A stretch of 10,398 nt of DNA, taken from contig CAYXAY010000025.1 of assembly GCA_964463155.1 (NCBI GenBank), positions 1 to 10,398 on the forward strand, in the 5' to 3' direction. Positions 737 through 10,398 of the stretch are shown piece after piece; position 1 is the stretch's first letter; each line of letters begins with the position of its first letter. Under the pieces are notes generated by a model. The model was not told the origin of the DNA. It was given only the letters and a program-made list of their open reading frames with translations, and ran no database searches. The position numbers were made by a program, and so were the translations under genes. The DNA is from an uncultured archaeon (GTDB lineage Archaea; Iainarchaeota; Iainarchaeia; Iainarchaeales; CSSED10-239).

Positions 737-1252
737 ATGAAGAATAAATTTGTTGGTTTTATTATACTTTTTATTGCATTGTTAATGTTTGCAATCATCT
801 TTCTATTTAATAGGGGCATGACAGACATTGTTAATACTTCTTGTGATCACGGACCGAGATGTCCAATGTGGGAAACTATTAATTTTCAAACAAATGTAAG
901 TATTGGCATAACCATTTTTGTAATATTGGTTGGCGTGTTTTTGATATTTTTTGGCAATGAAGAGAAAATAGTAACAATCGTAAAAACCAAAACAGTACAT
1001 CCTAAAAAAGTCGCAAATAAGATAACTAAAACAGAATATTCTAATATCCTCTCTACTCTTAATTCAGAAGAAAAGACAGTTTTTGAAAAGATTATTGAAG
1101 CAAAAGGAAGCATATATCAATCAGAGATTGTTCAAAAAACCAATTTTACAAAGGTTAGAGTCACAAGGATACTGGACAAACTAGAGGGAAAAGGCCTAAT
1201 TGATAGAAAAAGAAGAGGAATGACAAACATCGTTCTTTTAAAGAACAATTGA
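737..1252 (+). CDS. Membrane-anchored winged-helix (MarR/TrmB-like) transcriptional regulator: two TM helices, a Cys/His/Cys/Met loop and a cytoplasmic wHTH (resembles the archaeal COG2512-type architecture)
   Basis: TM1 is FVGFIILFIALLMFAIIFLF. The loop NRGMTDIVNTSCDHGPRCPMWETINFQTN has the motif at nt 842-871. TM2 is VSIGITIFVILVGVFLIFF, followed by a Lys-rich linker. The wHTH (nt ~1058-1243) reads LNSEEKTVFEKIIEAKGSIYQSEIVQKTNFTKVRVTRILDKLEGKGLIDRKRRGMTNIVLL. The positive-inside rule places the loop outside and the wHTH inside. Confidence 0.75.
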   Translation: MKNKFVGFIILFIALLMFAIIFLFNRGMTDIVNTSCDHGPRCPMWETINFQTNVSIGITIFVILVGVFLIFFGNEEKIVTIVKTKTVHPKKVANKITKTEYSNILSTLNSEEKTVFEKIIEAKGSIYQSEIVQKTNFTKVRVTRILDKLEGKGLIDRKRRGMTNIVLLKNN

Positions 1253-1263
1253 AACTAGTTTCA
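1250..1263. promoter_or_regulatory. Perfect 14-bp palindrome TGAAACTAGTTTCA, candidate operator of the copper-module promoter
   Basis: It is self-complementary when read directly. It overlaps the TGA stop of the regulator gene and sits just upstream of the TATA-like box. A third GTTTCA half-site lies at 1282-1287, inside an imperfect direct repeat (gtttcaagatataatat 1258-1274 and gtttcaatataatat 1282-1296). Confidence 0.4.
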
Positions 1264-1264
1264 A

Positions 1265-1280
1265 GATATAATATATAAAT
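1265..1280 (+). promoter_or_regulatory. TATA-like box for the 1301/copA transcription unit (archaeal-type, near-leaderless)
   Basis: gatataatatataaat is centred about 25-30 nt upstream of the ATG at 1301. There is no Shine-Dalgarno-like purine run before the ATG. Confidence 0.3.
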
Positions 1281-1300
1281 GGTTTCAATATAATATTTCT

Positions 1301-1906
1301 ATGGGTAAAGAAAACAAAAAAGGAATAGCCAAAGGTTTGTTGTTTGCAATTATCCCCCACATAGGGTGTATACTTTTTATAGTTTTAAGTGTACTTGGAG
1401 TTACTATTGCGGGCAGTTTCTTTAGAAATTTATTATTTAATAGATATATATTTTACATACTTATCGGATTGTCCTTTTTATTTGCGGGGCTTTCTACAAT
1501 AATTTACTTAAAGACAAACAAGATATTGTCAATAGCAGGCATAAAAAGAAAATACAAGTATATCCTTTTGATGTTTGGAACTACAATTGTTGTTAATCTT
1601 TTGCTTTTTTTTGTAATATTTCCTTTCATTGCTAATTTTTCTATAAATAACCAGCAAAACCTCACATCATCTGGGCTTTTAGATGTCACAAACCAGATAA
1701 CTAATACCATTGTTGTGGACATCCCCTGTTCAGGACATGCTCCATTAATAATAAATGAATTAAAAACAATACAGGGAATTATAACAGTAAAGTTTAAACT
1801 TCCAAATCGTTTTGTAATAACTTATGATAAAACAAAAACCTCAATAATTGAAATAATTAATCTTGAAATTTTTAACGAATTTCCTGCAAAACTGATAAAG
1901 AGATAA
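1301..1906 (+). CDS. Three-TM membrane protein with a C-terminal HMA-like (ferredoxin-fold) domain carrying CSGH instead of CxxC; MerT/MerP-like fusion architecture, putative membrane-tethered metal acceptor/chaperone
   Basis: TM1 LLFAIIPHIGCILFIVLSVLGV contains P-H-I-G-C (nt 1355-1369). TM2 is YIFYILIGLSFLFAGLSTIIYL, followed by the basic loop KTNKILSIAGIKRKYKY. TM3 is ILLMFGTTIVVNLLLFFVIFPFIANF. The C-terminal region TIVVDIPCSGHAPLIINELKTIQGIITVKFKLPNRFVITYDKTKTSIIEIIN has a beta-alpha-beta-beta-alpha pattern with the metal loop where GMxCxxC would sit (CSGH at nt 1727-1738). Its stop is 3 nt before the copA ATG. Confidence 0.7.
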   Translation: MGKENKKGIAKGLLFAIIPHIGCILFIVLSVLGVTIAGSFFRNLLFNRYIFYILIGLSFLFAGLSTIIYLKTNKILSIAGIKRKYKYILLMFGTTIVVNLLLFFVIFPFIANFSINNQQNLTSSGLLDVTNQITNTIVVDIPCSGHAPLIINELKTIQGIITVKFKLPNRFVITYDKTKTSIIEIINLEIFNEFPAKLIKR

Positions 1907-1909
1907 AAC

Positions 1910-4084
1910 ATGAAAAAAACATATAAAATTACTGGCATGCATTGCACTTCTTGTTCCAAAAACATAGAGACAGCTTTAAAGAACGAGAAAGGAATTACAA
2001 AAACTACTGTTAATTTTGCAACAGAGTTTGCTGAAATAGATTTTGATGAGAAAAAAACATCTGAAAATGAAATTTTTACAAAAGTAAAACAACTAGGCTA
2101 TAACATAGAAGAAAAAACAGAAGAAATTACTGAGAAAAAACCAAAGAACGAATGGAAAATAAGGTTTTTTATTTCTCTAATATTTACAACCCCCATTTTT
2201 GTTCTTTCAATGTTTGTTTCTGATTTTAGTTCAAAGAACTTAATTCTTCTTTTGCTTACAATTCCGGTTCAGTTTTTTATTGGGTTTGCATTTTATAAAA
2301 GTTCATATTATTCTGTTAAGGCAAAAGCAGCAAACATGGATGTATTGGTTATTGTTGGAACAACCGCTGCATTTATTTATAGTGTGCTTGTTATCTTGAT
2401 GCCTGAAAGTTTTGGACACATGGCGTATTTTGAGATTTCAGCAGTAATAATTACTTTTGTAGTTCTAGGAAAATGGTTAGAATCACACTGTAAGGGAAAA
2501 GCATCAGAAGCAATAAAGAAATTAATTGATCTTAAGCCAAAATTTGCAACAGTTTTAAGAAACAATAAAGAAATAAGAATTTCAGTAAAGGACATAGTAA
2601 TAGGAGACATAGTTATTGTCAAACCCGGAGAAAAAATAAGTGTTGATGGGGTAGTAATTTCTGGAGACTCTTATGTTGATGAGTCAATGGTGACCGGAGA
2701 AAGCAAACCTGTGCATAAGACTAAGGGAAATGAAGTAATCGGAGCCACTATAAACAAGAACGGTTCTTTTACCTACAAAGTAACAAAAATCGGAAAAGAC
2801 ATGTTTATTAGCCAAATAATTAAACTTGTTGAGGACACTCAAAACAGTAAGGCGCCTATTCAAAAACTCGCAGATAAGATTAGTGGTTATTTTGTGGTTA
2901 TTGTGATTGTCATTGCCTTAATTAGTTTTTGTGTGTGGTATCTTTTGCTTGCTAAAAGTTTTGTATTTGCATTAATTGTTTTTATTTCAATTTTAGTGAT
3001 TGCTTGTCCTTGTGTTCTGGGCCTTGCAACACCCACTGCAATTATAGTATCTACTGGCATGGCTGCAAATAATGGCATATTAATTAAGAACGCAGAAGTC
3101 ATTGAAAGACTATCAAAAACAAACACAATTGTATTTGACAAAACTGGAACCTTGACTTCTGGTTTTCCGGAAGTTACAAAAGTTATTTCTTTAGATGAAA
3201 GTATATCTGAAAAAGAAATATTAAAGATTTCAGCAATAGGCGAGAAAAAATCAAACCACCCTTTGGCTGAAGCAATAGTATCAAAGACAAAATCAGAAAA
3301 AATAAACTATGACTTTAATCCAGAAAAGTTTTTGGAAACAGACGGCAAAGGCATTTCTTTTATTTTAGAAAAATCAAAATATCTTGTTGGTAATAAAAAA
3401 TTATTAAATGAAAGCAAAATTGATTGCACGAAACAAGATAAGCAAATTATGGAGCTAGAAAGAAAGGCTCAAACAGTTGTTCTTGTTTCTAGAGACAATA
3501 AGTTAATTGGATTAATCTGTATATCTGACAAAATAAAAGAAAATGCAAATCTTGCAGTTTTAAGATTAAAAGGAAAAGGCAAGGAAGTTATACTTCTTAC
3601 AGGAGATAATTCTGAAACAGCAAAGGCCGTTGCAAAATCCGTTGGAATAGATAAAGTAATCTCTGAAGTTTTACCTAAAGATAAATCAGAAGTAATTAAA
3701 GAACTTCAAAAAGAAGGAAAAATTGTGACAATGGTTGGAGACGGTATAAATGATGCTCCTGCTCTTGTTCAAGCAGATATCGGCATAGCGATTGGTTCAG
3801 GAACAGATGTTTCTATAGAAGCAGGACAAGTTGTTTTAATTAAAAATAACATATTAGATGTTGTTAGAGCAATAGATATAGCAGAATTTACCTTTAAAAA
3901 AATAAAACAAAATCTTTTCTTTGCGTTCTTTTACAATTCAATAGGCATTGTTATAGCAACAGGTGCTTTTTATGGGATTTTAGGTTTTATATTAAACCCA
4001 ATGATTGCCGCGGGAGCCATGGCATTAAGTTCAGTATCTGTGGTGTCAAATTCTGTATTAATGAAACGCCACAAATTCAAATAA
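1910..4084 (+). CDS. copA: Copper-translocating P1B-type ATPase
   Basis: There is a single N-terminal HMA motif, GMHCTSC (1934-1954). Also present are actuator TGES (2693-2704), the TM6 CPC motif in [11 protein letters not shown] (3005-3013), the phosphorylation site DKTGTLT (3137-3157), the [11 protein letters not shown] motif, and the hinge [10 protein letters not shown] (3737-3766). Length is 724 aa. Confidence 0.97.
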
Positions 4085-4088
4085 ACTA

Positions 4089-4098
4089 TTTCTTTTTT
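4089..4098 (+). terminator. Oligo-T tract after copA, possible archaeal-type intrinsic terminator
   Basis: tttctttttt begins 5 nt after the TAA stop at 4082-4084. No convincing hairpin accompanies it. Confidence 0.3.
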
Positions 4099-4244
4099 AC
4101 AATTAGTTTCTGCGGATTTATCATAATATCCTTCAACATACTTAGAAACATTCTTTACTTTTGTAATTTTCGTAAGCAATCACAAACATTTGAGAAACAA
4201 TTATTTTATAATGTTATTTGCAATATATGGTATCAAGTGATAAC

Positions 4245-5267
4245 ATGTCAACAGTATACTTCAAAGCAATTGATGATTATTCTAAGACAGATGAGATTAA
4301 TATGGCAGTCTTAGAACTGTTTAAGAAAGTCAATAATGGCTTTGTGGGGGAAGTAGCAATTAAAGTTCATTTTGGAGAAGACGGAAACAAGACTTTTATT
4401 TCTCCAAGAAATTATGATCAATTGATTGATTATCTCCAAAAGAATAATTGTACTCCAGTCTACATAGAATCAAATGTTTTATACAAAAGCAAAAGAACAA
4501 CAAGAGAAAGCCACATAGCGTTGGCAAAAGAACATGGCTTTACTAATCTTCCAATAGTTATTGCTGACGGATATATTGGAGAAGAATATATTGAAGTTGA
4601 AATTTCTAAAAAGCATTTTAAAAGTTGTAAGATTGGAAAGGCCTACAAGAACTATTCTCAATTTATAGTTATTACTCATTTTAAAGGACATGGACTTTCG
4701 GGGTTTGGAGGAGCAATCAAAAACCTAGGAATGGGTTTTGCAGCAAGATCAGGAAAACTAGCAATGCATGCTAATTCTAAACCAATAATCAATCCATTTA
4801 AATGTAAGAAATGTCATCTTTGTGAACAGAATTGTCCAGTTAATGCTATAACTATTGGATTAATTCCACACATTGATACAAAGAAATGTATTGGTTGTGC
4901 AAAATGCATAGCCATTTGTCCACATCATGCATGTACTGTTAATTGGATATCAACTTTTCCAGGTACCTTTGAAGAAAAGCTTTGCGAGTACGCTCTTGCT
5001 GCAACTAAGGCAAATAAAGATAATCAAATAATCTATATTAACTTTTTATTAAATATTACAGACAACTGCGATTGTATGTCTCACACAAAAGTTGTTGCAA
5101 AAGATATTGGTATTCTTGGTGGAACAGACCCTGTTGCCATGGACAAAGCATGTTTTGATCTACTAAACAAAAAAGAAAACAAAAAAGTCTTTCCTGGAGA
5201 AAAAACTTTTGATTATGCTGAAAGTATTAGTCTTGGTAAGAAAGAATATATTTTAAAAGAAATCTAA
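4245..5267 (+). CDS. DUF362-type protein (COG2768-like uncharacterised Fe-S protein) with an inserted 2x[4Fe-4S] ferredoxin domain
   Basis: Two CxxCxxCxxxCP motifs are present: CKKCHLCEQNCP (4803-4838) and CIGCAKCIAICP (4887-4922). Flanking segments look typical of DUF362 (VAIKVHFGE, ITHFKGH, NITDNCDC). The ORF track starts at TTG 4218. ATGs occur at 4227 and 4245, and I prefer 4245 (MSTVYFK) because family members usually begin close to the VYF strand and a TATA-like attttataat lies at ~4203-4212. The start is uncertain within 4218-4245. Confidence 0.85.
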   Translation: MSTVYFKAIDDYSKTDEINMAVLELFKKVNNGFVGEVAIKVHFGEDGNKTFISPRNYDQLIDYLQKNNCTPVYIESNVLYKSKRTTRESHIALAKEHGFTNLPIVIADGYIGEEYIEVEISKKHFKSCKIGKAYKNYSQFIVITHFKGHGLSGFGGAIKNLGMGFAARSGKLAMHANSKPIINPFKCKKCHLCEQNCPVNAITIGLIPHIDTKKCIGCAKCIAICPHHACTVNWISTFPGTFEEKLCEYALAATKANKDNQIIYINFLLNITDNCDCMSHTKVVAKDIGILGGTDPVAMDKACFDLLNKKENKKVFPGEKTFDYAESISLGKKEYILKEI

Positions 5268-5280
5268 TATAAATATATTT

Positions 5281-6114
5281 ATGCGAATACTTCCAAAGAT
5301 ATTTAAAAGACCAAAACATAAGAAAGACATAGTAAAAAGAGTTTCTGAGGGAAAAAAAACAGATAGTTGGGCAAAGAATGGAACCAAAGACAGATATCGA
5401 ATAGTATTTGAATATAAATTAGAAAATCACCCGCTTGAATTCTTAGAAAGATTGAAAAATAAAAAACCAAAAGTACTGTTTATTGGTCCAGGAAAAGGAG
5501 AATATATTAAAATATTCAAAGAAAAACTAAATGAAAAAGGCATATCTCCGGAAATATCAGTAATTGGCATAAAAAAATCAATTAATCCAGATTTATTAGA
5601 AGAAAAAGTAATTAATAGAGACTATTCCATTGATAAAACAATGGAAGACATTTTTGATAATCCAAATAAATATGAAACATTAATTAAAATTCTAAGAGAC
5701 AATGCAGATTTAGTTATTGCTTCTAAAAGCTCAGGATTTCACACATATTACCCCGCATATAATGTTTTTATTTCTGCACTTTTGCTAAAACCAGGCGGAA
5801 GAACATATATTGAAATACCAACTAGAGAATTAATACTTGGAAGTGAATCAAGAAAATCAAAAAACCAACAACCTTATGGTATTTTTAATAAACTTAAAAA
5901 AATAATTTACGGAGAAGAAGATTATGAAAACCAAATACAATATCGCCATAAAAAAAGAATGATTAGAGAAGTTGAAAATATTTCTGAAGAAACAAGAACA
6001 TATTTAAACAAATACTTTAAAAGAGACGTGTCTAAAGAATTTGAGATAAATTTATTTAATAAATCTAAAAGCGCAGGCTCTGTATTTGTTATAGTTAATA
6101 GAAAATCCCTATGA
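5281..6114 (+). CDS. Lys-rich hypothetical protein with divergent class I (Rossmann) SAM-methyltransferase-like motifs
   Basis: The 277-aa ORF contains KVLFIGPGKGEY (motif I-like G-x-G-x-G), ADLVIAS (a beta4-like strand) and ALLLKPGGRTYIE (the 'LLKPGG' post-motif strand). The N- and C-terminal tails are very basic. The ATG lies 13 nt after the DUF362 stop. Confidence 0.55.
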   Translation: MRILPKIFKRPKHKKDIVKRVSEGKKTDSWAKNGTKDRYRIVFEYKLENHPLEFLERLKNKKPKVLFIGPGKGEYIKIFKEKLNEKGISPEISVIGIKKSINPDLLEEKVINRDYSIDKTMEDIFDNPNKYETLIKILRDNADLVIASKSSGFHTYYPAYNVFISALLLKPGGRTYIEIPTRELILGSESRKSKNQQPYGIFNKLKKIIYGEEDYENQIQYRHKKRMIREVENISEETRTYLNKYFKRDVSKEFEINLFNKSKSAGSVFVIVNRKSL

Positions 6115-6764: not shown

Positions 6765-8003
6765 ATGGATACAAACGCAATTAAGGAAGTTTTAAAATTT
6801 AGTGATAATAATCTTGATGACTTTACAGAGTCTCAAAGGTTTTTATTTTCTGAGATTGAAAGCAAAATATCTCATTTTTCAAAAAAACGTGGACTTAATA
6901 TTATATTAATAACTGGACTTAGAGGAACAGGTAAAACCACAATCTTGAAGACAATTGCTAAGAAACATAACGGTCTATATATCAGTGGAGATTTTCTAAA
7001 GACTAAGCAAATAGATATTCCAGACTTAACTGAAATTTCTAAAGCTTATGATAAAAAGATAATAATTATTGATGAGATACTTTATCTTTCAGATTGGCAA
7101 TTAAAGTTAAAGATTGAAGCAGACACTAATCAGAATATTCTTTATATCATTTCTGGTTCTTCAGCAATGCAGTTAAAGAAGATTTCTCCGGATTTATCTA
7201 GGAGATTAGATACTTATAGGCTTAATCCATTATCTTTTAGGGAATATCTAGTTTTAAAGAATAATCTTAAATTAGAGCAGAAAGTTGATTTTTCTAGTTT
7301 TTCAAATAAGGATCAAGAAAAGTTATTTTTAGAGTTATCTTCAATCAAGCAGAAACTACCAAAAAACATATATTCTTTGTTTAAAGAATATTATGAAGAT
7401 CAGTTACCTTATCTTCTAGAGGAAAAGAACAAAAGAGACAAGATAAGGCAGTTAGTTGATAAAGTCATATATAAAGACATGCCGCAGATTGATAATCTAT
7501 ATACTGAGCAATTAAGAAATGCAGAAATCATTATTATGTTTTTAAGTTCTGCAGAAAAGATAAACTATACAAGTATTTCTACAAATCTAGGTATTAAAAA
7601 AGACATGGTGATTAAGATTATTAATCTTTTAGAAAAATCTGATTTATTATATATAGTTCAAGACGTTATTCCGACTAGAGAACTTAGAAGTAACAAGAAA
7701 GTTCTATTTTCTTCTCCCGGAATAAGGATAGCACTAAACGAGATAAATGAAGAAATGGTTATTGGTTTTTCAAGAGAAGACATGTTTGGTTTAATTATTA
7801 AATCTGCTGGTTTAAAAATAGCATATAACTACAAGCAAAAAGGTTATGATTATTTAGTTAACAAAGTAAAATTTGAGATAGGCAAGAACAAGACCAAGAA
7901 CAGTACAAGCAAAGGCACCATTGTCGTAGGCGACTACTTAGATGTAGAATACAAAAAGCAAGTACTTTATGTTCCAATGTTTCTTTTAGCTTTAATTAAT
8001 TAA
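6765..8003 (+). CDS. AAA+ ATPase of the AAA_14 + DUF4143 (COG1373-like) family with a C-terminal PD-(D/E)xK-like motif
   Basis: Walker A is ITGLRGTGKTT (6915-6941) and Walker B is IIIIDEI (7059-7079). The DUF4143-like/wHTH segment is VIYKDMPQIDNLYTEQLRNAEIIIMFLSSAEKINYTSISTNLGIKKDMVIKIINLLEKSDLLYIV (~7458-7680). The C-terminal GYDYLVNKVKFEIGK (7842-7886) corresponds to the family's 'EvDFv....iEvK' region. Confidence 0.88.
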   Translation: MDTNAIKEVLKFSDNNLDDFTESQRFLFSEIESKISHFSKKRGLNIILITGLRGTGKTTILKTIAKKHNGLYISGDFLKTKQIDIPDLTEISKAYDKKIIIIDEILYLSDWQLKLKIEADTNQNILYIISGSSAMQLKKISPDLSRRLDTYRLNPLSFREYLVLKNNLKLEQKVDFSSFSNKDQEKLFLELSSIKQKLPKNIYSLFKEYYEDQLPYLLEEKNKRDKIRQLVDKVIYKDMPQIDNLYTEQLRNAEIIIMFLSSAEKINYTSISTNLGIKKDMVIKIINLLEKSDLLYIVQDVIPTRELRSNKKVLFSSPGIRIALNEINEEMVIGFSREDMFGLIIKSAGLKIAYNYKQKGYDYLVNKVKFEIGKNKTKNSTSKGTIVVGDYLDVEYKKQVLYVPMFLLALIN

Positions 8004-8267: not shown

Positions 8268-8359
8268 CAGATAAAGATGGTCAAATGCTTTTAGATTCTG
8301 TAATTGAAAAAAGGTTTAATTTTTAAATTTTATGGCATCACATAATATTTGGTGTAAAT

Positions 8360-10398
8360 ATGAATAAACTAGTTTCTTTTAAAGTAATAAATAAATCTGT
8401 AGCTAGAAAAATTTGTATTTTTTTAATAATTAGTTTTATGTTATTTTCTACAACATATATGTTTGCGAGGACAACTTTTATTCCCCAGAATTTTGATTTT
8501 AAAAAAGATATTGATATTTCAAATGCCTATATTAATTATGAATCAGAAGTTCTTAATAATATGCTTGAAGAACGCAAATATGATTTTTTTAAATTAAACA
8601 CGAATAGAGATTATGTTGATGGAGAAATATTAGTAAAATATAAGAAAAGCCAAATAGATTTAGATACTTCTTCGGGAAGAACAGATGCCAAAAGTTTTAG
8701 TATTAATAATTTATTGACAAAAGTTGAATATTTAAGAAAAGACAATATATCTATATTAAGAATAAATGATAATAAAAGTGTTGAAGAAAAAATAGAAGAA
8801 CTTGAAAATGACCCAAATGTAGAATATGCACAACCAAACTATATTTATTATCCGTTTGGTATAGACACAAATGACATTAATAAAAATGTTTTATGGGGAT
8901 TACATAATTTTGGACAAAATGTAAATGGAGTTTCTGGAACAAATGATGCAGATATTGATACTCCCGAAGCTTGGGGAATATCTGTTGGTTCTTCTAGTGT
9001 TATTGTCGCAGTTATAGACACCGGTGTTGCATATAATCATCCAGATTTAATTGGTAATATGTGGGATGGGGCAACTTGTAAAGATGAGAATGATAAAATA
9101 TTAAATAATTGTGTTCATGGTTATGATTATTCAGATAATGACAAAACACCATTACCAACACTAAGTGATCATGGGACTCATGTTGCTGGAACTATTGCTG
9201 CTTCTAAAAATAATGGTACTGGAATAATTGGCGTTGCACCAAATGCAAAGATAATGGCAATAAGAGCAGGAATAGATAGCTTTACTACTGCAAATTTAAT
9301 TAAATCAATAAACTTTGCAAGAAGAAATGGTGCACACATAATAAACGCAAGTTGGGGTGGCACAGCATCTGATACGACATTACGAAATGCAATTAATTCT
9401 TTTCCAGGATTATTTATTGCGGCTGCAGGTAATAGTGGAAGAGATCACAATAATACAGCAATTTATCCTTGTGATTATAATTCTACAAATATAATTTGTG
9501 TTGCTGCAACAGACCAAAACGATAACTTAGCTTTATTTTCTGATTATGGTACAATATCTGTAGATGTTGGAGCACCAGGAACAAACATTTATAGTACAAT
9601 TAATGGTTTTCTTAATGATGCTTTAGATGAAAACTTTGAAAGTGTAACTGCGCCACAGATCCCTAATAATTGGGAAGCTGCAGGAACTCATGTGAATTGG
9701 GGCACTGTTGATATTAACGGAAATTACGAAAATGTGTTATATGGCGACCAGGTAGTTCCTTATGCAAATAATGCAAATTCAACAATTACTTCTCCAACTG
9801 TTGATTTAAGTAATATTGGTGGGGCAACAATAACTTTCGTGACCGTTTGCGATACAGAATTAGATTTTACATATTGGAAAGATTATATGGCATTAGAATT
9901 TAGTAGTAACGGTAGTACATTCACTGAAATATTAAGATGGGACGAAGCATATTTTTCCCCAGGGAATGTTGTACCAATAATTAAAGAAGATATTTCTACA
10001 AAATATTTAACAAGTAATTTCAGATTTAGATATAGATGGGTTACGAATAGTTCAGATAATAATTATGGTGGTTGTTTTGTAGATAATATTTTGATAAAAA
10101 CTTACAGTAATGGCTTTGATGATGAATACGCTTATTATGACGGAACATCCATGGCAGCACCACATGTTACAGGATTAGCTGCATTAATACGGGGATACAA
10201 ATCTGATCTAAATTATTCACAAGTTAAGGATTTGATTTTAAATAACGGAGATTCATTAAATTCATTAAATAATAAAACAGTAACGGGTAAAAGAATAAAT
10301 GCACAAAAAACTCTTGAAGCAATGAATGTATATAAACCAACAATAGTAAATGTGTCTTCAACTAAACCGAATGGCAGATATAAAGCAGGAACCGATAT
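8360..10398 (+). CDS. Secreted subtilisin-like serine protease (peptidase S8) pre-pro-enzyme with a large inserted beta-sandwich-like domain; 3' end lies outside the window
   Basis: This ORF is absent from the ORF track because it has no stop in the window. I translated it codon by codon from ATG 8360 to 10398 (679 codons) and found no stop. The signal/anchor is KICIFLIISFMLFSTTYMFA (to ~8467). The I9-like propeptide is GEILVKYKK...NDPNVEYAQPNYIY (~8618-8851). Catalytic residues are Asp in VAVIDTGV (gac 9017-9019), His in SDHGTHVAGTIAA (cat 9170-9172), oxyanion Asn in AAAGNSG (aat 9431-9433) and Ser in GTSMAAPHVTGLAAL (tcc 10148-10150). An SD-like ggtg lies 5 nt upstream of the ATG. Confidence 0.93.
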   Translation, partial: MNKLVSFKVINKSVARKICIFLIISFMLFSTTYMFARTTFIPQNFDFKKDIDISNAYINYESEVLNNMLEERKYDFFKLNTNRDYVDGEILVKYKKSQIDLDTSSGRTDAKSFSINNLLTKVEYLRKDNISILRINDNKSVEEKIEELENDPNVEYAQPNYIYYPFGIDTNDINKNVLWGLHNFGQNVNGVSGTNDADIDTPEAWGISVGSSSVIVAVIDTGVAYNHPDLIGNMWDGATCKDENDKILNNCVHGYDYSDNDKTPLPTLSDHGTHVAGTIAASKNNGTGIIGVAPNAKIMAIRAGIDSFTTANLIKSINFARRNGAHIINASWGGTASDTTLRNAINSFPGLFIAAAGNSGRDHNNTAIYPCDYNSTNIICVAATDQNDNLALFSDYGTISVDVGAPGTNIYSTINGFLNDALDENFESVTAPQIPNNWEAAGTHVNWGTVDINGNYENVLYGDQVVPYANNANSTITSPTVDLSNIGGATITFVTVCDTELDFTYWKDYMALEFSSNGSTFTEILRWDEAYFSPGNVVPIIKEDISTKYLTSNFRFRYRWVTNSSDNNYGGCFVDNILIKTYSNGFDDEYAYYDGTSMAAPHVTGLAALIRGYKSDLNYSQVKDLILNNGDSLNSLNNKTVTGKRINAQKTLEAMNVYKPTIVNVSSTKPNGRYKAGTD

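Follow-up and report, generated by a model that had tools for sequence, protein, structure and literature searches.

The known copper sensors are either soluble cytoplasmic proteins (CueR, CsoR, CopY, the ArsR-type regulators and the TRASH-containing CopR) or two-component kinases that monitor the periplasm (PMC7558416). In the copY-copZ-copA cluster of Enterococcus hirae and the copY-cupA-copA cluster of Streptococcus pneumoniae, a regulator is followed by a small copper accessory protein and a P1B-1 ATPase. The accessory protein CupA is membrane-anchored and works with CopA and CopY (PMC7558416; PMC5646241). The same order of genes is found in a 10,398-nucleotide stretch of contig CAYXAY010000025.1 from an uncultured archaeon of the Iainarchaeota (hereafter the window; GC content ~29%), where a predicted membrane-anchored regulator, called R here, is followed by a three-helix membrane protein, called T, and by a CopA-type ATPase. 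We read these genes as a copper-responsive efflux operon of a DPANN-type archaeon under an uncharacterised class of regulator, and the probability of this R-T-CopA mechanism as a whole is put at roughly 0.55.

An original prediction, made from the letters of the window, had described the three genes as co-directional with gaps of 48 and 3 bp, and the coordinates of the open reading frames (ORFs) agree with it (gaps at 1253-1300 and 1907-1909; Table 1). It had also called CopA textbook, and the 724-residue product bears this out: the protein scores 607.8 bits against TIGR01511 (cutoff 397), 633.7 against TIGR01525 (threshold 346), 199 bits against PF00122 and 116 bits against PF00702, and all P-type core motifs are present (TGE at 262, DKTGT at 410, HP at 450, GDGIND at 610). 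The P1B-1 Cu(I)/Ag(I) ligands are complete (CPC at 366, YN at 675, MALSS at 704), and the single N-terminal heavy-metal-associated (HMA) domain carries the motif GMHCTSC at 9. The threshold of the Escherichia coli CopA equivalog PRK10671 is missed (632 vs. 1316), so the protein is a CopA-type ATPase rather than an orthologue of the E. coli type. The CPC motif is found in all 86 high-scoring neighbouring ATPases of related loci.

These signatures bear on the possibility that not copper but some other thiophilic metal (Ag, Cd, Zn or Hg) is handled by the module. CxxH and Cys/His sites are able to bind Zn or Cd, and the C-terminal domain of T has the mercury-binding protein MerP as its best structural match. 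However, the ATPase has the complete CPC, YN and MxxSS signature and scores above the Cu-ATPase cutoff and far below the ZntA cutoff, T pairs with CsoR in some loci, sibling operons carry CopZ, and Ag(I) would be handled along with copper by the same chemistry, all of which makes a metal other than copper highly improbable.

Table 1. Features of the R-T-copA unit, with positions in the window
Feature	Position	Strand	Basis
R, predicted membrane-bound one-component regulator, 171 aa	737-1252	+	ORF, Pfam, AF2, Foldseek
R, predicted extracytoplasmic metal-binding knuckle C36-D-H38-G-P-R-C42-P-M44-W45	842-871	+	conservation, AF2 turn
Operator palindrome TGAAACTAGTTTCA (6-2-6), perfect 14 bp	1250-1263	+	sequence, related-loci consensus
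TATA box TATATAAA of the T-copA promoter, after the BRE-position stretch	1272-1279	+	conserved T.ATA block
Third operator half-site GTTTCA, between TATA box and T start	1282-1287	+	+31 GTTTC conservation
T, 3-TM membrane protein with predicted outward C-terminal HMA-fold domain, 201 aa	1301-1906	+	AF2, Foldseek, K+R counts
T, invariant intramembrane motif P19-H20-I-G-C23 in TM1	1355-1369	+	120 homologues
T, invariant P142-C143-S-G145-H146 in the beta1-alpha1 loop of the HMA-like domain	1724-1738	+	conservation, profile alignment
CopA, P1B-1 Cu(I)-exporting ATPase with one N-terminal HMA domain	1910-4084	+	TIGR01511, PF00122, PF00702, PF00403
Oligo-T run TTTCTTTTTT, 5 nt past the copA stop	4089-4098	+	read from sequence

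R and T had both been claimed to be integral membrane proteins, and their AlphaFold2 (AF2) models contain two and three transmembrane (TM) helices, respectively. R is laid out as TM1 (residues 5-24), an outward hairpin tip, TM2 (54-72), a linker of ~30 residues and a C-terminal winged helix-turn-helix (wHTH) of the MarR/DUF7343 type at residues ~107-168 (nt 1055-1240). Pfam matches at residues 109-168 include DUF7343 (43.7 bits, threshold 27.6, E 2.4e-11), PF01047 MarR (32.6 vs. 24.6, E 7.5e-8) and PF12802 (28.3 vs. 27), and in Foldseek the wHTH resembles ArsR/MarR regulators. The AF2 model, built from 120 homologues, shows a helix at 2-35, a tight turn at 36-42, a second helix at 43-71, a disordered linker and the wHTH at 110-168 (predicted local distance difference test, pLDDT, 81.5); compared with the hydrophobic spans, each of the two helices extends ~10 residues beyond the membrane. 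R does not have the flanking-helix dimer layout of MarR proteins, since its wHTH sits at the C-terminal end and its N-terminal half is the 2-TM hairpin.

The turn of the hairpin holds the conserved sequence S-C36-x-H38-G39-x-x-C42-P43-M44-W45, in which C36, G39, C42 and M44 are invariant and H38, P43 and W45 are kept in at least 90% of 120 homologues. Because the wHTH needs the cytoplasm to reach DNA and two TM spans precede it, the loop is placed outside the membrane, and homologue statistics give 0.97 lysine plus arginine (K+R) in the 29-residue loop vs. 7.8 after TM2. The earlier claim that the Cys/His/Met motifs face outward is thus upheld by positive-inside statistics for the R loop and the C-terminal domain of T, and fails for H20 and C23 of T, which lie inside TM1. 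Loss of these positions among homologues had been named as grounds for refutation; they are kept, with invariant sites in both R and T (120 homologues each).

A search with R found 509 homologues at E<=1e-3, and relatives occur at no fewer than 508 loci in GTDB species-representative genomes. When the hairpin alone was searched against 1.84 billion representatives, 83 proteins were matched, all of them of 180 residues or fewer and always at the N-terminus; no other architecture was seen among these representatives, so the hairpin appears to be a single-architecture family. R gave no Pfam or NCBIfam match at E<=0.1 to the CsoR, CopY, CueR or TRASH-type CopR models, and the same method detects genuine CsoR (PF02583, 80.9 bits) in related bacterial loci. 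The claimed lack of a CsoR, CopY, CueR, TRASH or soluble HMA gene likewise holds among all ORFs of at least 50 residues, a statement that covers the 10.4-kb window and not the genome.

The 48-bp gap between R and T had been said to contain a palindrome and a TATA box. Both are there, and the palindrome overlaps the stop codon of R, the first three bases of TGAAACTAGTTTCA being the TGA itself. The third half-site stands 14 nt ahead of the ATG of T. In the window alone the palindrome is not significant (2 matches at <=1 mismatch vs. 0.47 expected). In 1.41 Mb of related loci, its exact core GAAACNNGTTTC was found 106 times vs. 1.1 in shuffled sequence. These sites lie within 150 nt of the R stop in 71 cases (often spanning the stop) and 5′ of T in 19; those near neither precede other metal genes. 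The consensus drawn from 102 distinct sites reads TGAAACTAGTTTCA, wACAAT at the position of the TFB-recognition element (BRE), T.ATA as the TATA box and a second GTTTC. The T.ATA block is found at +22/+23 from the palindrome core in 85/102 sites and the second GTTTC exactly at +31 in 90/102, and orientation and composite layout are common to all 36 sites whose sequence is listed, namely 35 away from the R stop and the window's own. The start codon falls 50-52 nt past the core at 43/98 sites, which fits a leaderless or short-leader mRNA. The 6-2-6 geometry resembles that of MarR operators. The conserved palindrome is thus genomically coupled to R, and its binding by R itself is predicted.

An operator is present within 3 kb downstream in 62 of 76 R loci. 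The first gene past it is T at 55 sites, a CopZ-type HMA gene at 18 and a YHS/TRASH-like gene at 10, and other first genes encode FtrD-like, PCYCGC or small Cys-rich secreted proteins. The earlier statement that no CopZ is involved is therefore true of the window and fails as a rule of the system, as the 18 sibling sites place a CopZ-type HMA gene under the same operator. In place of T or CopA, some operator cores precede small Cys-rich proteins, secreted or membrane-anchored and metallothionein-like, or a PCYCGC-motif protein (loci L053 at 6485, L070 at 6541, L075 at 6530 and L023 at 8619).

No sign of autoregulation of R was found: the window has no operator 5′ of R, and just 1 of the 106 core sites lies upstream of an R gene. 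Since 372-736 holds no operator, the sequence suggests that R is expressed independently of copper. A TATA-like TCTATAATATAT stands at 712-723, 14-25 nt ahead of the ATG of R, and the 365 bp at 372-736 contain no convincing gene, only a 55-residue antisense ORF at 456-623. A further candidate operator, TAAACTAGTTTC at 8365-8376 (+), differs from the core by 1 mismatch and was judged to be a chance match, as it has neither the TATA nor the +31 half-site context and falls in codons 2-6 (MNKLVSF) of a subtilase gene.

R-like proteins with another sensor loop and the same wHTH keep the palindrome, and the TGAAACTAGTTTCA operator is absent from L083 and L121, where the recognition helix is changed. 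At least five other T loci that have no R carry divergent 2-TM wHTH proteins. Such proteins adjoin T at L083 4343-4858, L121 3325-3855, L132 5326-5817, L152 2203-2688 and L096 3326-3820, and their outer loops differ and are Cys-rich (CSCTEMxxxGxCP[MH]; HQDCPIPDPICP; HKDCNLPAESCP; CTHGPTCSMY), which indicates several sensor variants in the R family.

In the AF2 model of T (pLDDT 85.5; predicted TM-score, pTM, 0.76), TM helices at residues 5-32, 50-72 and 85-113 are followed by a C-terminal domain at 132-199 (nt 1694-1897). This domain has the order beta-alpha-beta-beta-alpha-beta, with strands at 132-139, 160-166, 170-176 and 196-199 and helices at 144-154 and 182-193. Its top Foldseek match is MerP (1osd, TMt 0.77), and the HMA domains of HMA7, ATP7B and CopA also match, with TMt 0.73-0.83 to MerP and to the metal-binding domains (MBDs) of HMA7 and ATP7B. 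In a profile alignment to the MBDs of Bacillus subtilis CopA, "iPCsGH" of T falls over "MTCaaC". The metal loop D-I-P-C-S-G-H thus has CxxH for CxxC, the invariant His146 replacing the second Cys, and departs from the GMxCxxC pattern. The T protein of the window gave no match to PF00403, which matches only those homologues that have an extra, canonical HMA domain at the N-terminus.

Six residues of T in or beside its predicted metal sites (P19, H20, C23, C143, G145 and H146) are invariant across 120 homologues. Further invariant residues of the TM part are G33, F51, L54, Y69, L70, G80, N99, F107, P108 and N112, and with so many of its residues fixed the membrane part is likely to be more than an anchor. 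The K+R counts (3.6 in the N-terminal flank and 5.0 in the loop between TM2 and TM3 vs. 1.1 in the loop between TM1 and TM2 and 0.4 after TM3) place the N-terminus inside and the C-terminal domain outside. The family numbers 256 homologues. Of the 120 that were compared, 31 have a canonical HMA domain at the N-terminus, 64 an N-terminal CC and 67 a Cys/Gly-rich C-terminal tail; a cytoplasmic N-terminal HMA or CC is found in 95.

The architecture of T recalls MerT and MerP, a likeness that had already been pointed out. T shares with MerTP fusions the three TM helices and an outward C-terminal domain of HMA fold, and this part of the comparison stands; it differs in having H-x-x-C in TM1 where MerT has CC, and CxxH rather than CxxC in the HMA domain. 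The TM part itself shows no detectable similarity to MerT. T reaches 25.3 bits against the NCBIfam model MerTP_fusion (NF033556; cutoff 180), of which the C-terminal domain alone recovers 14.9, and the match to Pfam MerT has E=0.05. TM-only fragments of five T members gave no MerT or MerTP match, and homology of the membrane domain to MerT was rejected after hhalign of the T family profile against verified MerT returned a probability of 0.2; the MerT reference sequence had been checked against annotated plasmid genes, with 100% identity. The Cys pairs of MerT are also missing, as TM1 of T has P-H-x-G-C and the loop between TM2 and TM3 (LSxxGIKRKWKY) contains no Cys.

These comparisons weigh on an alternative in which T acts as an inward relay in the manner of MerT/MerP. 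The outward CxxH would capture Cu(I) and pass it inward via the His/Cys of TM1, to end at the cytoplasmic N-terminal CC/HMA or at the N-terminal HMA of CopA, so that copper is fed into the pump or the cell. The MerTP-fusion architecture would fit such a role (26 of 30 T members touch MerTP_fusion at E<=0.01), as would the presence of metal ligands on both faces and in TM1, together with the cytoplasmic modules of most homologues. However, co-inducing an importer with an exporter would serve no purpose where the cytoplasm does not detoxify the metal, the two MerT Cys pairs and any profile similarity of the TM part are lacking, and the neighbours of T are CopA, R or CsoR, with neither merA nor merR nearby, where no model search aimed at these two genes was made. 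We consider an inward relay unlikely.

The neighbourhoods of the two accessory families were compared in two sets: loci anchored on R, taken from GTDB species representatives and with 4.5 kb or more of downstream flank (n=54), and T-anchored metagenome loci (n=46 for downstream CopA, n=51 for upstream R). Association with P1B ATPases had been proposed as a check of the module, and both families pass it: a CopA-type ATPase follows R on the same strand in 40/54 loci, and CopA follows T in 39/46. T follows R in 29/54 loci, and R precedes T in 26/51. The gap between T and CopA is 100 nt or less in 36/79 cases, in 12 of which the genes overlap or lie within 10 nt. The 80 R loci that were inspected are all archaeal and belong to Woese-, Pace-, Nano-, Aenigmat-, Micr- and Parvarchaeota, Iainarchaeum and Methanofastidiosum.

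In about ten loci without R, csoR (PF02583) stands directly 5′ of T-copA (L089, L109, L112, L116, L125, L130, L135, L136, L139 and L142), and in five of these (L109, L112, L116, L130 and L089) T and copA overlap or are no more than 10 nt apart. The csoR loci probably come from bacteria resembling the candidate phyla radiation (CPR)/Patescibacteria, and the arrangement indicates that T has moved between domains and between regulators.

A membrane protein with a cupredoxin domain replaces or accompanies T in 32 related loci (e.g., L031 7756-9594). Its recurrent layout begins with an N-terminal CC and a single TM helix, followed by a Cupredoxin_1 domain on the outside and a C-terminal Cys/Gly-rich tail that resembles the tail of long T homologues. 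The protein may be a CupA-like substitute for T or a companion of it. The clusters further contain genes for FtrD-like lipoproteins (18 loci), DsbA-like thioredoxins (8 loci) and small thioredoxin-like proteins (6 loci). The cupredoxins, DsbA-like thioredoxins and FtrD-like lipoproteins of the regulon indicate that copper is handled outside the cytoplasm.

The thioredoxin genes also bring up a different function for R, in which its outward Cys pair serves as a thiol/disulfide switch responding to the oxidation of envelope thiols, whether catalysed by copper or general. Two invariant Cys residues six positions apart at a turn would suit such a switch. However, a disulfide switch would not require Met44, His38 or Trp45, which are invariant (Met44) or nearly so and are typical of Cu(I) sites. 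The regulon consists mainly of Cu(I) proteins (CopA, HMA, YHS and cupredoxin), and the carriers would mostly be anaerobic lineages of sediment and groundwater, so that a thiol switch seems quite unlikely.

The hairpin of R might also be a mere anchor or dimerisation knuckle, e.g., a structural metal site, with copper read indirectly via T, the cupredoxin or CopA, as in trigger-transporter pairs such as CadC-LysP. R almost always adjoins membrane copper proteins, and the location of its stop codon inside the operator keeps gene, protein and target promoter together at the membrane, both of which would favour such a partnership. However, the partners vary (T, cupredoxin, soluble CopZ or none) while the loop motif of R is invariant, and the conserved residues of R are classical soft-metal ligands; indirect sensing is accordingly judged to be very unlikely.

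In the mechanism that we prefer, direct sensing of Cu(I) by R, R would be made from its own promoter and inserted as a two-helix hairpin with the MarR-like wHTH in the cytoplasm. A dimer of R would bind the palindrome TGAAACTAGTTTCA, directly adjoining the BRE/TATA of the promoter that follows, and R would also bind the GTTTCA half-site just 3′ of the TATA box, thereby gating the recruitment of TBP, TFB and RNA polymerase to a leaderless T-copA transcript. At the outer face, the hairpin tip (C36, H38, C42 and M44) would bind Cu(I), which would re-pack the TM helices, re-orient the pair of wHTH domains and switch the promoter on. This switch is most likely a de-repression, and a CopR-like change from repressor to activator would be equally compatible with the positions of the sites.

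T, presumably co-translated with CopA given the 3-bp gap, would act within the membrane as the Cu(I) partner of the pump. The outward CxxH domain of T, of HMA fold, would take up or sequester Cu(I) at the exit of CopA, assisted in most homologues by the Cys-rich tail, and the His/Cys site of TM1 may form an intramembrane relay. The cytoplasmic N-terminal CC/HMA module of most homologues would add CopZ-like feeding. What the analysis itself establishes is the gene order, the invariance of the motifs, the predicted folds, the topology statistics, the linkage to CopA in genomes and the conservation of the operator. That R and T bind Cu(I), that R binds the operator TGAAACTAGTTTCA, whether the regulation is negative or positive and which way metal moves through T are inferred.

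Taken jointly, R would be a membrane-embedded one-component sensor of Cu(I) at the outer face, with a C-x-H-x3-C-x-M knuckle, and T a new family of transmembrane Cu(I) relays or acceptors, a combined reading that is tentative and falls somewhat short of an even chance. The signal of R would then cross the membrane directly to the MarR-like wHTH, and, with an operator that starts at the R stop, the R gene would be held at the membrane along with its nascent product and the promoter that it controls. The joint work of T and CopA would extend over DPANN archaea and Methanofastidiosa, and to CPR-like bacteria, where it would be under CsoR.

Several observations weigh against this mechanism. Fourteen of the 54 R loci have no CopA within 4.5 kb, and 25 of the 54 have no T, which makes T dispensable for R. 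The model of R has a pTM of 0.43, leaving its domain arrangement uncertain, and the placement of the operator would suit a repressor, an activator or a regulator that is both. The TM domain of T matches no known transporter, and the T of the window is minimal, without an N-terminal CC/HMA and without a Cys-rich tail, so the picture of T as a two-faced chaperone draws partly on its relatives. The DNA-binding role of R and the metal-binding roles of R and T are predicted, and the membrane domains of both are models. Outward cysteines would also be prone to oxidation in oxic habitats.

The unit is limited to R, T and CopA, as the other genes of the window are not syntenic in related loci. Those neighbours are a C-terminal fragment of an E1-beta/transketolase, a DUF362 protein, a weakly methyltransferase-like ORF, an AAA_14/DUF4143 ATPase and an S8 subtilase; the E1-beta fragment, the DUF362 protein, the ORF at 5281 and the subtilase do not recur in 160 related loci, and the AAA_14 gene has one weak match there. 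The oligo-T run behind copA is likely to be the archaeal terminator of the T-copA transcript, judging from its sequence and position. Past this run, 133 nt 3′ of copA, lies the gene of the DUF362 protein (4218-5267, +) with two 4Fe-4S ferredoxin motifs, which is placed outside the copper unit because it is absent from all 160 related loci. It is followed by a 277-residue ORF at 5281-6114 (+), with a weak methyltransferase match only (E=0.0046), and by the AAA_14/DUF4143 ATPase (E 1.1e-25) at 6765-8003 (+). The S8 subtilase at 8360-10396 (+) is large and secreted, has a Fervidolysin-like N-terminal prodomain (PF00082 3.4e-51; PF22148 2.5e-12) and runs past the end of the window. The reading of 8268-10398 as an ORF-free stretch was rejected, since it contains this subtilase gene, which has no stop codon within the window. 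No RNA genes were found in the window by Rfam at the gathering threshold or by ARAGORN.

By its sequence, R fits no known copper-sensor family, and T joins a variant of the HMA fold to a membrane domain without a match in any known family. No publication on either family was found in a literature search that omitted most subscription-journal papers. If the proposed mechanism is true, a membrane-spanning R that reads copper outside and contacts DNA would be a third solution to copper sensing. The R system may be the main copper system in its DPANN lineages and in Methanofastidiosa, lineages which are almost unculturable and in which regulation is essentially unknown. The conservation of the operator is strong enough for prediction of the regulon from sequence alone, a rare thing among DPANN archaea. 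In T, CopA would have a partner of a new kind, with a bearing on the fate of Cu(I) at the CopA exit in cells without an outer membrane. With R at 171 residues, T at 201 residues and a promoter of 50 bp, the parts are small enough to suit direct biochemistry and reporter work.

With respect to the copY clusters, the resemblance lies in gene order. CopY is a soluble repressor of the cytoplasm, whereas R is embedded in the membrane with its predicted ligands outside; CopZ is soluble and the CupA domain is cytoplasmic, whereas T combines three conserved TM helices with an outward CxxH HMA domain.

CopR with CopM/CopZ and CopA in Sulfolobus and Pyrococcus furiosus likewise forms an archaeal cop cluster. 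The palindromic CopR site of P. furiosus lies directly upstream of the BRE of copper promoters (PMC7830388), and the 5-2-5/6-2-6 palindrome of the R operator has the same position, directly 5′ of the BRE. The YHS/TRASH-like small proteins of sibling R regulons are a further likeness to the CopR system. However, CopR is a soluble HTH and TRASH protein that senses cytoplasmic Cu, whereas R is membrane-embedded and lacks a TRASH domain, and the two operators are distinct in sequence (TTNNCAWWWTGNNAA for CopR, TGAAACTAGTTTCA for R).

CusRS/CopRS, CusF and CopL of Staphylococcus aureus sense or bind Cu(I) outside the cytoplasmic membrane, as is proposed for R and T. CusF receives Cu(I) from CopA (PMC7558416), and the gene of CopL, a surface lipoprotein, lies next to that of a copper ATPase (PMC5947656). 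CusS and CopS are histidine kinases with a separate response regulator, in contrast to the single protein R, and the folds of CusF and CopL are unrelated to T and have no polytopic membrane domain.

The closest counterparts of R in overall design are membrane-bound regulators. ArnR and ArnR1 are membrane-bound one-component regulators of Sulfolobus (PMC6396743). These proteins and ToxR/CadC, as predicted for R, unite sensor, membrane span and DNA-binding domain in one polypeptide, and all depend on the target promoter reaching the membrane. In ArnR, the HTH is N-terminal and the TM helices are C-terminal. To our knowledge, no metal sensing is known for ToxR/CadC or ArnR/ArnR1. ToxR and CadC have an N-terminal wHTH of the OmpR type, one TM helix and a large C-terminal periplasmic domain, whereas R shows the reversed order, with a 2-TM hairpin, a sensor loop of 29 residues and a C-terminal wHTH of the MarR type.

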